In this document: positions 51,005 through 59,087 of the stretch, one piece after another | Numbering within the stretch: the stretch's first letter is position 1 | Layout: each line of letters opens with the position of its first letter | Translations under genes and position numbers: made by a program | Assembly (NCBI GenBank): GCA_035638115.1 | Contig: DASRAN010000074.1 | Span: forward strand, 26,062 to 90,061 | From: Patescibacteria group bacterium | GTDB taxonomy: Bacteria; Acidobacteriota; Polarisedimenticolia; Gp22-AA2 | Direction: 5' to 3' | DNA length: 64,000 nt | The notes under the pieces: model-generated | What the model saw: the letters and a program-made list of their open reading frames with translations, nothing else | Database searches by the model: none | What the model was told of the DNA's origin: nothing

Positions 51005-52318
51005 ATGGAGCCCATGCATCCGGCGAGACGCGTCGGGACGCTCTGCGTCGGAGCGCTCGTTCTCGTGCTCGCCGGCGCGTGGCCCCGGGCCGCCGATGCG
51101 TTCTCGGTCCTGGCCCACGAAGCCATCATCGACACCGCCTGGGACAAGCACATCCTGCCGCTGATCCGCCTCCGCTTTCCCGACGCGACACCCGAGGAGC
51201 TGAGCGACGCCCACGGCTATGCCTACGGCGGAGCCATCATCCAGGACATCGGTTATTACCCGCACGGGAGCCGCCTGTTCAGCGATCTGGCGCACTACGT
51301 CCGCAGTGGCGACTTCATCCTCGCCCTGCTGCACGACGCCAAGGACGTGAACGACTACGCCTTCGCCCTGGGTGCCCTGTCCCACTACGCGGCGGACATC
51401 GACGGCCACAGCGTGGGCACGAATCGCGCCGTTCCGATCCTCTATCCGAACGTTCAAAAGACGTACGGCGACATCGTGACCTATGAACAGAGCCCCTCCG
51501 CGCACCTGAAGACGGAGTTCGGCTTCGACGTCATGGAGATCGCGCAGCAGCACTACGCGCCCGACAGCTACCATGCCTTCATCGGTTTCGGGGTCGCGAT
51601 CCCTCTCCTCGAGCAGGCGTTCCAGGAGACCTACGGCCTGGACCTCAAGCTGGTCCTGACCGACGAGGCCAAGGTCTTCGGCTCCTACCGGCACGCGGTC
51701 GCCACATTGATCCCCAAGGCCACGCGCATCGCGTGGACTTTGAAGAAGGACGACATCCTGAAGAGCACCCCCAGCGCGACGCGGAGGACCTACATGTACA
51801 ACCTGTCGCGCGCCAGCTACGAGAAAGACTGGGGACAGGACTACCTGAAGCCGACGTTCGGGGAGAAGTGCGCGGCGTTCTTCATGCACCTCGTCCCGAA
51901 GATTGGCCCGCTGAAGGTCCTCAAGCTCAGCCCGCCGACGCCGGAGACGGAGCAGATGTTCGAGGCCAGCTTCAACGCCGCGCTGGATCGCTACAAGGTC
52001 CTGCTCGGCCAGGTGAGGACCGGCGATCCGAGCGTGCCGAACAGCAATTTCGATACCGGCAAGGTCACGCCGGCCGGGATCTACTTCATGAACGACGATG
52101 CGCATGCCCAGCTTCTCGAGGCCCTCGCCAAGCAGGGCTTCGCGGGCGTCTCCATCGAGCTGCGTACGGAGCTGTTGCAGTTCTATGCGGACCCTGAGGC
52201 GCCGTACGCGACGAAACGCAAGGCCAAGGACTGGGACAGGGTCGTGTTGGCCTTGAAATTGCTGAAGGAGTCCGCGCCCGCGCCGCTCACCGCGGAGACC
52301 TTGCCCGTCTCCCGTTGA
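51005..52318 (+). CDS. Secreted zinc-dependent phospholipase C / S1-P1 nuclease-fold protein
   Basis: Signal peptide; the mature N-terminus FSVLAHEAIIDTAW follows the P1/PLC WxxxxH pattern; HYAADIDGH (H-x3-D-x3-H) Zn-ligand-like motif. Family assignment from memory. Confidence 0.6.
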   Translation: MEPMHPARRVGTLCVGALVLVLAGAWPRAADAFSVLAHEAIIDTAWDKHILPLIRLRFPDATPEELSDAHGYAYGGAIIQDIGYYPHGSRLFSDLAHYVRSGDFILALLHDAKDVNDYAFALGALSHYAADIDGHSVGTNRAVPILYPNVQKTYGDIVTYEQSPSAHLKTEFGFDVMEIAQQHYAPDSYHAFIGFGVAIPLLEQAFQETYGLDLKLVLTDEAKVFGSYRHAVATLIPKATRIAWTLKKDDILKSTPSATRRTYMYNLSRASYEKDWGQDYLKPTFGEKCAAFFMHLVPKIGPLKVLKLSPPTPETEQMFEASFNAALDRYKVLLGQVRTGDPSVPNSNFDTGKVTPAGIYFMNDDAHAQLLEALAKQGFAGVSIELRTELLQFYADPEAPYATKRKAKDWDRVVLALKLLKESAPAPLTAETLPVSR

Positions 52319-52340
52319 CCTGCGCCCGCGAAGGAGAACG

Positions 52341-58485: not shown

Positions 58486-59087
58486 CGCCCGTGGAGCGGG
58501 TCCTCATCCTCAAGAACGCCGACCTTCTCAAGGACGTGGGCCCGCGCCACCTGCTCGGCCTGGCGGACGTGGCACGCGAGATCGAGATCGCGAAGGGCGA
58601 GACGCTCTACGACGAGGACGACCCGGCCGACGCGCTTTACATGGTGGTCGAGGGCCGCGTGCGCCTGTCGTCGAAAGGCGACAGGACGACCTCAGAGGTC
58701 GGTCCGGGCGAGGCGTTCGGAACCTGGGCGCTCGTGGACGACTCCCGGCGCGGCCATCGCGCCGAGTGCATCGAGGAGGGCCTGGCGCTGGCGCTGCGGC
58801 GCGAGGATTTCTACGACCAGGCCGCCGGCGATCTGACGCTGCTCCAGGAGGTGGTGCGCGTGCTGGCCAAGCGCCTCCGCGCGATGGTGGCGGATCGGCC
58901 CGCGGAGGCGCGCGTCGAGGCCGAGGGCATCGAGAAGCCGCCCGAGGCGCCCACGGCACCCAACGCGCCCGCGCCCGCGGCGCCCACGGCGGGCTCCGCC
59001 CTGGAGGCCGCCGTGCTCGGGCAGACCGAAACTCAGGGGCCGCCCGGCGAGCCTGCGTCATCGAAGCCCGGGATCGAATCCGATTGA
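58479..59087 (+). CDS. Cyclic-nucleotide-binding (CAP-effector-type) domain protein
   Basis: GTG overlaps the upstream stop (GTGCTGA); cNMP-binding beta-roll motifs (…GETLYDEDDPADALYMVVEGRVRL…GEAFGTWAL…). Confidence 0.75.
   Translation: MLTPVERVLILKNADLLKDVGPRHLLGLADVAREIEIAKGETLYDEDDPADALYMVVEGRVRLSSKGDRTTSEVGPGEAFGTWALVDDSRRGHRAECIEEGLALALRREDFYDQAAGDLTLLQEVVRVLAKRLRAMVADRPAEARVEAEGIEKPPEAPTAPNAPAPAAPTAGSALEAAVLGQTETQGPPGEPASSKPGIESD

Follow-up and report, generated by a model that had tools for sequence, protein, structure and literature searches.

Nucleotide carriers of the NTT family that end in a HEAT-repeat domain (NTT-HEAT), with an adjacent or fused cyclic-nucleotide-binding domain (cNBD), form a known and widespread module that occurs in many free-living bacteria, in cyanobacteria and in Chlamydiae (Major, Embley & Williams 2017, PMC5381601). 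The NTT-HEAT clade is still uncharacterised; its function was left open, with ATP uptake as a speculation, and among the NTT carriers already known some are proton-driven net importers of nucleotides (PMC5381601). We analysed a 64,000-nucleotide stretch of DNA (the window) in which such a pair neighbours a second carrier, a predicted exported kinase-fold protein and a metallophosphoesterase. Known periplasmic phosphorylation draws on undecaprenyl pyrophosphate as its donor (LpxT). To our knowledge, the periplasm is held to lack ATP, so that a nucleotide carrier beside an exported kinase would make functional sense. Full-text literature searching, only partly aimed at this composition, found no description of it, and no comparable system emerged from the literature on periplasmic kinases or periplasmic ATP; papers mentioning DUF4956 offered nothing informative. 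The initial annotation of this DNA had been aware of no described system of this composition. That stands for the assembly as a whole, while its TLC-HEAT and cNMP pair was already known (PMC5381601).

Six same-strand genes (A to F) span positions 50996-59087 of the window with all junctions at or below 22 nt, as read from their open reading frames. Two further genes, H and I, lie on the opposite strand beyond an insertion sequence. They are absent from the initial annotation and are the most constant partners of C. The features are listed below.

A: 50996 (TTG) or 51005 (ATG) to 52318, + strand; Zn-dependent phospholipase C-like protein (PLC), predicted to be exported; accessory.
B: 52341-53207, + strand; single-domain PPK2, class III-like, cytosolic; accessory.
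C: 53204-54436, + strand; atypical kinase-fold protein of a new family, predicted to be exported; core.
D: 54433-55752, + strand; TLC/NTT-like MFS carrier of the inner membrane, without an extra domain.
E: 55759-58485, + strand; TLC/NTT-like carrier with a C-terminal HEAT-repeat domain (NTT-HEAT architecture).
F: 58479-59087, + strand; stand-alone cyclic-nucleotide-binding protein, cytosolic.
Insertion sequence, IS1-family-like: 59093-60333, - strand; outside the system, splitting the F/H junction.
H: 60340-61302, - strand; purple-acid-phosphatase-like metallophosphoesterase, predicted to be exported; core.
I: 61286-61824, - strand; protein of ∼190 residues, predicted to be exported; core partner of H and C.

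Six consecutive same-strand genes with tight junctions had been described before, and our reading reproduced all but one of those junctions. A 22-nt gap separates the end of A (52318) from the start of B (52341), the GTG start of C (53204) sits on the stop of B in a GTGA overlap, and 6 nt lie between the end of D (55752) and the start of E (55759). In a GTGCTGA overlap, the GTG start of F (58479), 7 nt inside the E stop, sits on that stop. The exception is the C/D junction, previously given as ∼45 nt of overlap. The first ATG of D (54391) would create an overlap of 46 nt; this start was dropped for TTG 54433, where an independent gene call begins for P0121, a 439-residue protein 100% identical to D, so that sequence and gene call agree on a 4-nt TTGA overlap. 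A 4-nt overlap is also called in the related loci L017 and L018 and in the P0007 contig. All six frames are backed by their third-position GC (0.83-0.92). A scan of the + strand within 51-59 kb found no terminator-like sites and no sigma-70-like promoters (0 promoters against 0.7 expected, which makes the scan uninformative). The short junctions and overlapping start and stop codons lend indirect support to a single transcription unit from A to F. GNAT and DegT sugar-modification genes lie upstream in the window, as they do in the P0007 contig.

The IS1-like insertion that parts H and I from F carries 21-nt terminal inverted repeats (59093-59113 and 60313-60333; 95% complementary) and a transposase reading frame (59128-60234, - strand) that matched the NCBIfam IS1 transposase at 7e-13, below the cutoff. 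No homologue of the element was found in any related locus. Two other reading frames here, 59110-60207 (+) and 59033-60199 (-), were discarded as wrong frames over the transposase gene (third-position GC 0.58-0.68 versus 0.83).

Structure prediction and a fold search indicate that C adopts a bilobal kinase fold, with CtkA and HipA among its best structural matches. The initial annotation had called C 'HipA-like' and expected HipA_C or another PKL fold for 53204-54436. A PKL-type fold was borne out; the likeness to HipA holds at the level of the fold and fails in sequence. The HipA_2 match, confined to residues 84-132, scored 13.5 bits (cutoff 27, E 0.044), HipA_C gave no match in Pfam (the PF07804 and PF20613 cutoffs were not reached), and no HTH or HipB-type gene adjoins C in ∼100 loci. 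A sequence search of C against the PDB returned nothing meaningful, the Fam20C and CotH Pfam models found nothing in C at E ≤ 0.1, and identity to Fam20 and CotH in structural alignments is 9-11%. No Pfam or NCBIfam family matched C or I, nor the proteins X and C2 of the related operons described below.

Five residues of C (K106, E119, D239, N245 and D273) are invariant in 39 homologues and map to β3, αC, the loop after αE and the DxG turn of the model. With catalytic roles assigned from motif order in the model, without superposition, they correspond to the signature of a β3 Lys, an αC Glu, a catalytic-loop Asp...Asn and the metal-binding Asp of a DFG-like turn. The same alignment contains eight invariant cysteines, and the two Asp residues lie 34 residues apart, with a Cys-bridged insert. 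C begins with a hydrophobic signal-like segment, and A-x-A sites are conserved in its alignment; signal peptides of A, C, H and I were judged by eye and by hydropathy. As judged from its sequence and predicted structure, C is a kinase-fold protein of a new family that is probably exported; it is a core part of the locus. The family comprises 1450 clusters at 50% identity, without annotation.

H matched Pfam Metallophos at 67.8 bits (cutoff 21.5, E 2.3e-18), and its best sequence matches in the PDB are mammalian purple acid and tartrate-resistant acid phosphatases (3e-14). All five metal-ligand motifs of the purple acid phosphatase set (GDxG, GDxxY, GNH(D/E), VxxH and GHxH) can be read in it, as GDFG, GDNLY, GNHD, VFHH and GHDH. 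Its N-terminus holds a TRRTF motif followed by LAIGSC, with a hydrophobic segment, which suggests Tat export and a lipobox; H is probably a lipoprotein and probably starts at its second Met (61272). Protein I likewise has an N-terminal hydrophobic signal-like segment, and its conserved motifs are IMDENPG, YP..PLSTMPP and LEYRFIG. The start of I is uncertain, ATG 61822 being the sole canonical in-frame start nearby.

Both carriers matched Pfam TLC (PF03219, cutoff 21) as anticipated, D at 53.3 bits and E at 28.2 bits with the best stretch in residues 215-310. D also matched MFS_1, and a profile of its homologues matched 9j3n, the solved ADP,ATP carrier protein 1, over ∼315 positions (E 3.6e-9). 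For TIGR00769 (NTP/NDP exchange transporter), D scored 42 bits and E 19.8 bits, below the cutoff of 387.2. By sequence, D and E are distant relatives of characterised nucleotide carriers, outside the characterised group; they may carry cargo other than ATP and ADP, or import rather than export. The HEAT fusion and the cNMP-binding gene named in the initial annotation were both recovered: HEAT_2 in E (E 1.8e-13, best stretch residues 474-565), and cNMP_binding (PF00027) in F (58.9 bits, cutoff 27.5, E 4.9e-16), in which the phosphate-binding cassette GEAFG...RAE is readable. F stands after E in every locus that extends far enough. In E, a crude hydropathy scan counted just 5 membrane segments. 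We presume that its HEAT domain faces the cytosol and that F docks there.

The genomic neighbours of C were compared across its orthologous group, defined by at least 58% identity and providing 45 informative non-redundant loci. In 20 of these the gene immediately after C encodes a TLC carrier, D coming first in 12 and E in 8, and E is kept beside C in 20 loci. Among the loci with a transporter, 11 reach far enough to show what comes next, and 10 of them continue with H and/or I. H comes directly after C, with or without a PLD-like gene, in 24 loci and adjoins C or C-D-E-F in most orthologous loci, and I always adjoins H in the loci read. A more distant clade at ∼40% identity has C-I-H co-directional. 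No TLC gene lies beside the kinase in 24 of the 45 orthologous loci or in any of the 35 loci of the ∼40%-identity clade; thus, the kinase has no strict need of an adjacent carrier. Many loci are related by descent, so these counts overstate the number of independent events.

The two genes upstream of C proved far less constant. B is a clear PPK2, as had been expected: it matched PF03976 at 242.8 bits (cutoff 22.3, E 4e-72) and TIGR03709 at 368.7 bits (cutoff 247.2), and a Walker A motif, DAAGKDG, is readable. Its nearest solved structures, 5lc9 (1e-84) and then 5o6k, 6an9 and 6au0, were deposited as polyphosphate:AMP phosphotransferase or class III PPK2, and polyphosphate-driven conversion of AMP to ADP to ATP is the activity expected from its sequence. 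Of 42 informative orthologous loci, only 5 (L020, L022, L025, L028 and L052) have PPK2 immediately before C. In the closest long relative (86% identity) it is absent, and the PLC gene abuts C. PPK2 was therefore rejected as a core part, being missing directly before C in the other 37; B is an accessory whose coupled position upstream of C is limited to a sub-lineage. Of the ppk2/secreted kinase/TLC arrangement whose conservation was in question, relatives keep kinase, TLC, TLC-HEAT and cNMP genes, and PPK2 falls away. A matched Pfam Zn_dep_PLPC (E 6e-19) and has an N-terminal hydrophobic segment at residues 10-28. Apart from the window, the only loci that have it upstream of C are L015, L017/L021, L052 and the P0007 contig, and it is a local accessory kept only in the nearest relatives.

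A reverse test from the carrier side used two homologues of D, P0199 and P0218 (72-73% identity), picked solely for their long contigs. Both lie inside operons of the order X - C2 - Metallophos - D - E - F, where C2 is a kinase-fold family ∼21% identical to C. Comparison of the C and C2 alignments (A1 and A2) with hhalign gave E 3.2e-5 over 254 columns and paired the K, D, N and D of C with K155, D286, N291 and D311, all invariant in C2. The A1 profile matched a single C2 sequence weakly (probability 27%), and the C2 model has a pLDDT of 66 overall with a C-lobe of low confidence; the homology of C and C2 was settled by the two-alignment comparison together with a second model. Metallophos, TLC-HEAT and cNMP genes accompany C2 in 5 of 5 loci, and a plain TLC gene in 4 of 5, one locus lacking D. 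In one of three further C2 loci, E-F is inverted with its adjacency kept. The Metallophos proteins of these operons carry LAGC lipoboxes and belong to a different subfamily from H, PPK2 lies within 10 kb of C2 in 1 of 5 loci, and the C2 loci sit in contigs labelled as other phyla. That the linkage of kinase, TLC, TLC-HEAT and cNMP genes recurs with C2, in another gene order and with one inversion, is strong evidence for a functional unit.

We lean, tentatively and with somewhat less than even confidence, towards a core that acts as an extracytoplasmic phosphoryl-transfer module, rather than a PPK2 operon, in which carriers would swap ATP and ADP, a kinase would phosphorylate and a phosphatase would reverse the reaction. 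The data show the folds, the conservation of catalytic motifs, the signal-like segments and the conserved gene linkage. All that lies beyond fold, motif and synteny is inferred: carrier cargo and direction, kinase activity and substrate, the sidedness of the HEAT domain, and regulation. D and/or E would take cytosolic ATP out and periplasmic ADP or AMP in, the outward direction being suggested by a free-living host. C would spend the exported ATP on phosphorylating an envelope substrate (a protein such as I, a lipid or a glycan), and H would take the phosphate off again. Cyclic nucleotide bound to F would gate the ATP supply through the HEAT domain. Where present, B would recharge the returned AMP or ADP from polyphosphate. 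Phosphate set free in the C2 version would be taken back by a PHO4 phosphate carrier together with PhoU_div. The pairing of kinase and carrier recurs in distant bacteria, so a fuelled cycle of phosphorylation may be at work in these cells outside the cytoplasm. It is doubtful, if conceivable, that some free-living Gram-negatives export ATP to the periplasm via cyclic-nucleotide-gated NTT-type antiporters, driving a dedicated cycle of exported kinase and purple acid phosphatase on an envelope substrate, as a bacterial counterpart to the eukaryotic secretory-pathway set of Fam20C, an ATP carrier and ACP5.

The idea put forward in the initial annotation, that an envelope kinase is supplied with ATP, may explain the locus; phosphate scavenging fits the PHO4, PhoU_div, PAP2 and phosphatase neighbours about equally well. 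This main rival, a possible though rather unlikely one in our estimate, is a phosphate or nucleotide scavenging and homeostasis island akin to a Pho regulon. Exported PLC, H and PAP2 would free phosphate from external organophosphates, and the carriers would import nucleotides or phosphorylated compounds, a direction familiar from the proton-driven net importers among NTT carriers (PMC5381601). PHO4 would import phosphate, PPK2 would handle the polyphosphate store, and C would serve as an accessory that binds or hydrolyses nucleotides, in place of a signalling kinase. In 2 of 5 C2 loci (L100 and L102) D-E-F is immediately followed by PhoU_div-PHO4, and in a third (L101) by a PHO4 fragment; upstream, L101 has PAP2, His_Phos_1 and PPK2, and L103 has PAP2. 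The window itself holds both PLC and PPK2, and H is of the acid-phosphatase type. Scavenging, however, offers no obvious role for a kinase fold whose catalytic residues are invariant across two families of ∼21% identity and which is the most constant part of the cluster. Regulation by cyclic nucleotides and HEAT repeats is not known in Pho systems, the loci read showed neither PstSCAB nor PhoBR genes, and PHO4 is absent from the Acidobacteria version of the cluster.

The same neighbourhoods bear on the nature of the substrate. PHO4, PhoU_div, PAP2, PLC, PLD-like, DAGK_cat and PPK2 genes fit phosphate economy or lipid-phosphate metabolism too, and C could remodel the envelope as a periplasmic kinase of lipids or glycans, with H as the matching phosphatase and the carriers supplying donor nucleotide. 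This is a variant of the phosphoryl-transfer module that differs in its substrate, for which a lipid head group, diacylglycerol, a polyprenol or a polysaccharide would be candidates, and we consider it unlikely. A PLD-like HKD protein stands between C and H in more than 20 loci, PLC, PAP2 and DAGK_cat recur nearby, and the GNAT and DegT genes upstream would suit glycan modification. Nonetheless, the fold alone does not tell the class of substrate, the conserved protein I, itself predicted to be exported, would make just as good a candidate, and no lipid enzyme is common to all versions.

It is less probable still that there is no system at all, the known NTT-HEAT and cNMP pair being the only functional unit and the other genes its neighbours by shared syntenic ancestry. 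The variability of PPK2 and PLC, the origin of many loci in related uncultured Acidobacteria, and the absence of carriers from half of the C loci would all be expected on such an account. It fits poorly with a combination that recurs around a kinase of ∼21% identity on contigs labelled as other phyla, where the genes are ordered differently, the Metallophos protein is of another subfamily and one locus has an inversion. It fits no better with the 4-nt start-stop overlap at the C/D junction of the loci where both genes are called (L017, L018 and the P0007 contig). That C is the HipA-type toxin of a toxin-antitoxin pair, or an effector like CtkA secreted against other organisms, is most improbable: beyond the structural matches and the faint HipA_2 hit that suggest it, the profile score is below cutoff, no antitoxin-like gene stands alongside, a cytosolic toxin would be at odds with the signal-like N-terminus and the invariant cysteines, C matches none of the PADLOC defence families, a regular partnership with a phosphatase and carriers is foreign to toxin-antitoxin and effector loci, and the host is a free-living soil bacterium. 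An anti-phage defence system was likewise set aside, only the generic cNMP domain of F resembling Pycsar effector domains.

If linkage reflects function, the cluster would provide the first functional context for NTT-HEAT/cNBD carriers, unexplained since 2017, and would bring to light a large unannotated family of exported bacterial kinases. ATP-dependent periplasmic phosphorylation, and the means of fuelling it, would become testable. Were ATP export to the periplasm true, the assumption that no ATP-dependent phosphorylation takes place there would be overturned. Were scavenging true, the locus would still be an undescribed phosphorus-acquisition operon in phyla abundant in soils.

Among known systems, class III PPK2 enzymes (Meiothermus ruber, Cytophaga hutchinsonii; 5lc9, 6an9) resemble B over its full length, and as an enzyme B is ordinary; what is new is its coupled position upstream of an exported kinase, in one sub-lineage. 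C shares 9-15% identity with CtkA (the secreted kinase of Helicobacter pylori), HipA toxins and CotH spore-coat kinases, with no Pfam family above cutoff, and differs from them in its Asp-Asp spacing, its Cys-bridged insert, its eight invariant cysteines and its genomic partners. The trio of Fam20C, an ER/Golgi ATP carrier and the secreted tartrate-resistant acid phosphatase ACP5 offers an analogy rather than system-level homology; C is 9-11% identical to Fam20. The ATP carrier of the eukaryotic secretory pathway belongs to another family than D and E. The ATP/ADP translocases (Npt1/Npt2, plastid NTT1; TIGR00769; 9j3n) share the TLC family with D and E, and D aligns with 9j3n at the profile level; both carriers nevertheless stand far from the equivalog (42 and 20 bits against 387), and the host is free-living. 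To the NTT-HEAT/cNBD module, E corresponds in joining a TLC/NTT carrier to a C-terminal HEAT domain and F in overlapping the E stop with its start. No link to a kinase-fold protein, a metallophosphatase, a second plain TLC carrier, PPK2 or PHO4 was reported for that module; here, unlike in its original description, the pair sits within a larger conserved cluster (PMC5381601).

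The initial annotation proposed six consecutive same-strand genes (A-F) as a candidate new system, and these are borne out as plus-strand ORFs spanning 50996-59087. As first drawn, however, the cluster was incomplete: two minus-strand genes downstream of it, H and I, had been overlooked. The features are as follows.

50996-52318, plus strand: A, PLC-like (Zn_dep_PLPC, E 6e-19)
52341-53207, plus strand: B, PPK2 (PPK2 243 bits; TIGR03709 369 bits, cutoff 247)
Between B and D, plus strand: C, predicted exported kinase-fold protein
54433-55752, plus strand: D, TLC carrier (Pfam TLC 53 bits, cutoff 21; also MFS_1)
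55759-58485, plus strand: E, TLC-HEAT carrier (TLC 28 bits; HEAT_2 E 2e-13)
58479-59087, plus strand: F, cNMP-binding protein (cNMP_binding E 5e-16; intact phosphate-binding cassette)
59093-60333, between F and H: IS1-family-like element with 21-nt terminal inverted repeats
60340-61302, minus strand: H, Metallophos protein (best PDB matches purple / tartrate-resistant acid phosphatases, 3e-14)
61286 to about 61824, minus strand: I, conserved, predicted exported protein of ~190 aa beside H, of no family

Third-position GC of 0.83-0.92 and second-position GC of 0.41-0.52 across A-F are the pattern of real genes in 70% GC DNA and support these frames. Most of the proposed junctions hold: a 22-nt gap at A/B, a GTGA overlap at B/C, a 6-nt gap at D/E and a GTGCTGA overlap at E/F. 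The exception is C/D, where an overlap of ~45 nt had been claimed; the junction is a 4-nt TTGA, because an independently called protein 100% identical to D (P0121, 439 aa) begins at TTG 54433. The 4-nt overlap is likewise called in related contigs. Promoter and terminator pattern scans of the A-F region carry no information. GC is 0.64-0.66 over 42000-56000 versus 0.69-0.74 in most of the window, and 0.71 again over E and F; this drop could stem from a mosaic origin.

No Pfam or NCBIfam model matched C above cutoff, and a PDB sequence search with it gave no match. HipA_2 scored 13.5 bits against a cutoff of 27, so placing C in the HipA family is not supported. The kinase fold itself is supported by an AlphaFold2 model built with 39 homologues as input (pLDDT 85.8, pTM 0.85), which matches CtkA (11.6), Fam20 kinases (11.1), PI4K type II alpha (11.0), CotH (10.7), MavQ (10.1) and HipA-type kinases (8.8-9.9). 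K106, E119, D239, N245 and D273 are invariant in the 39-homologue alignment and lie on beta3, alphaC, the loop after alphaE and the DLG turn of the model, where they would form the kinase catalytic signature. Its hydrophobic N-terminus, with A-x-A sites throughout the alignment, and eight invariant cysteines predict that C is exported, in keeping with the signal peptide first proposed. Sequence searching recovered 416 homologues, none informatively named, and among 1.84 billion representative proteins a profile of the family hit 1450 clusters at E <= 1e-3 and 318 at E <= 1e-30; the family is large and unannotated. Several of the related loci compared (L023, L041, L076, L079, L086, and L025 and L033 on one 246-kb contig) carry kinase-fold paralogues, either in tandem or as two copies less than 19 kb apart, with L041 ordered C-D-C-E, as though one kinase served each carrier.

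The profile scores of B, D, E and F likewise agree with the first reading of a PPK2, two TLC-type transporters, one of them HEAT-fused, and a cNMP-binding protein. The structures closest to B are class III PPK2s deposited as polyphosphate:AMP phosphotransferases (5lc9, 1e-84), and B is an ordinary class III-like PPK2. Against a curated NTP/NDP-exchanger model D scores 42 bits and E 20 bits, both far under the cutoff of 387. A profile of D homologues aligns with the solved ADP,ATP carrier protein 1 (9j3n; E 3.6e-9). The 3′ end of F contains a pair of 33-nt direct repeats of 73% identity (58939-59004), which encode an Ala/Pro-rich low-complexity tail. PADLOC shows no defence family, save for generic cNMP-domain similarity in F, and a defence system was discarded.

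Downstream, H possesses five of five metal-ligand motifs, together with a TRRTF motif and a LAIGSC lipobox. The sole canonical in-frame start near I, ATG 61822, would leave a 10-residue pre-cleavage segment, against ~27-residue signal peptides in homologues; translation might instead begin at a CTG near 61861, or the gene may have decayed locally. Immediately upstream of I on the minus strand (61858-63702) is a predicted exported 614-aa protein that weakly resembles a right-handed beta-helix (Pfam Beta_helix E 0.002); related loci do not conserve it. The inverted repeats of the IS1-family-like element (59093-59113 and 60313-60333) are 95% complementary, and its minus-strand ORF encodes a 368-aa transposase with a zinc-finger N-terminus (NCBIfam IS1 7e-13, below cutoff). 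It begins 5 nt past the F stop and ends 6 nt from the H stop, shows no clear target-site duplication, and is found in none of the related loci. F and H adjoin in L003, L005, L017 and L018, as they would in the window without the element.

Window proteins were compared by tblastn with 99 loci, 86 of them non-redundant, all from metagenomes of uncultured bacteria whose MAG taxon labels are unreliable. The orthologous group of C (58-87% identity) comprises 51 loci, 45 of them informative downstream. There, C is followed by D, then by E and F where the contig reaches, in 12 of the 45; by E, then F where the contig reaches, without D, in eight; by an opposite-strand H and/or PLD-like HKD gene in 24; and by none of these in one, counts that are not of independent events because many loci are related by descent. 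H and/or I come next in 10 of the 11 transporter-bearing loci that reach past F. Among the 35 loci of a more distant clade (37-42% identity) no carrier lies beside C. In seven of them (L016, L072, L086, L087, L088, L093, L099) I and/or H neighbour C co-directionally, in the order C-I-H wherever all three are present. Kinase, phosphatase and I are therefore the oldest and most constant association, and in one lineage the carriers were added immediately downstream of the kinase gene. In the carrier-less version the PLD-like HKD protein (~295 aa, PLDc_2) lies between the kinase and phosphatase genes (L001 11201-12878, L002 12118-13743 and about 20 further loci). An MgtC/DUF4956 membrane protein adjoins the Metallophos protein in L001 and is fused to it in L002.

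Conservation of the ppk2/kinase/TLC arrangement, as first envisaged, is only partial: carriers follow C in 20 of 45 informative loci, but PPK2 directly precedes it in 5 of 42 (L020, L022, L025, L028, L052), all within a 70-87% identity sub-clade of C. The PLC gene is limited, among C-anchored loci, to L015, L017, L052 and the 86%-identical P0007 contig, which keeps the window's order without PPK2 (GNAT-GNAT-DegT-PLC-C). L025, which has a full PPK2 upstream of its kinase gene, also bears a short PPK2-like fragment downstream of I (17744-18022, ~93 aa, 40% identical to B); no ORF >=120 aa covers it, and it is possibly a relic. The PLC gene is preceded by two Acetyltransf_6 (GNAT/FemAB-like) genes and by one for a DegT/DnrJ/EryC1 aminotransferase (46549-50078), in an order shared with the P0007 contig; these look like sugar or envelope modification genes and may or may not be related to the cluster. 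A plus-strand ORF at 50170-50760 (GC3 0.77) encodes a small, predicted exported protein of no family with a high content of His, Gly, Asp and Tyr; ORF 50092-50793, which overlaps it on the minus strand, appears to be a wrong frame.

D has thousands of relatives, of which two (72-73% identity; L100 and L101) were picked solely for their long contigs. Their operons read X, C2, Metallophos lipoprotein, D, E, F, followed by PhoU_div-PHO4 in L100 and a PHO4 fragment in L101. C2 is a predicted exported protein of 446-456 aa with 686 homologues and no Pfam family. It is a distant homologue of C (blastp E 3.5e-4; profile-profile E 3.2e-5 over 254 columns at ~21% identity), and the aligned pairs K106/K155, D239/D286, N245/N291 and D273/D311 are invariant in both families. 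C and C2 are new families in the atypical kinase superfamily. Three further C2 loci hold the same set: L102 (also with PhoU_div-PHO4), L103 (no D) and L104 (E-F inverted, still adjacent). Directly upstream of C2 lies X, which is absent from the window:

L100, 5481-6947
L101, 4872-6932
L102, 8655-10004
L103, 3731-5467
L104, 6394-7785

X (449-578 aa, members 40-51% identical) has a predicted signal peptide and no Pfam family, carries in L101 a PAP2 phosphatase domain fused at its N-terminus (686 aa in total), and may be an outer-membrane component. PPK2 occurs near C2 in L101 only, 8 kb upstream and 50% identical to B. A predicted exported kinase fold, a predicted exported metallophosphatase, NTT-like carrier(s) and a cNMP protein thus recur over very deep divergence, in other orders and with a rearrangement; recurrence of this threefold kind usually points to functional linkage.

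NTT carriers work by nucleotide antiport or by proton symport, class III PPK2 converts AMP and polyphosphate to ADP and ATP, and purple acid phosphatases hydrolyse phosphomonoesters, phosphoproteins included. The periplasm is held to be without ATP. The periplasmic lipid A phosphorylation that is known draws on undecaprenyl pyrophosphate (PMC2229476). The analysis establishes the folds, the conserved motifs, the predicted export signals and the linkage; as a mechanism we tentatively propose a fuelled cycle of phosphorylation in the periplasm. In a free-living cell an ATP/ADP antiporter would be expected to work outwards, which is sensible only if ATP is spent outside, as by an exported kinase, and this favours such a cycle. 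D and/or E would supply ATP, C would write the phosphate and H would erase it. F and the HEAT domain would gate the supply, presumably from the cytosolic side; a crude hydropathy scan of E found only five membrane segments. PPK2 or PHO4, where present, would close the nucleotide and phosphate loops. I is a candidate substrate of C; a lipid or glycan substrate is also possible, because lipid-phosphate enzymes recur (PLD-like, PLC, PAP2, DAGK_cat) and lipid/glycan kinases are among the best fold matches.

An island for scavenging phosphate or nucleotides is a somewhat less likely reading: it accounts well for PHO4, PhoU_div, PAP2, PLC, the phosphatase and PPK2, but gives no role to the invariant kinase. 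Merely inherited synteny is improbable given that the kinase/metallophosphatase/carrier/cNMP set recurs in the C2 loci. A toxin-antitoxin system or effector is hardly credible, with the HipA_2 score too low, no antitoxin and predicted export signals on C.

E and F correspond to the NTT-HEAT/cNBD module that Major et al. described in 2017 (PMC5381601). Among the papers searched, those that mention NTT-HEAT assign it no function. Full-text searches turned up no description of the whole cluster, in keeping with the initial annotation, which knew of none, nor of any periplasmic kinase that has its own nucleotide carrier. We consider the cluster new in its composition, with a putative function. The eukaryotic secretory pathway combines Fam20C, an ATP carrier and ACP5, and it is to this that the logic of the system comes closest, by analogy only and with no homology implied.
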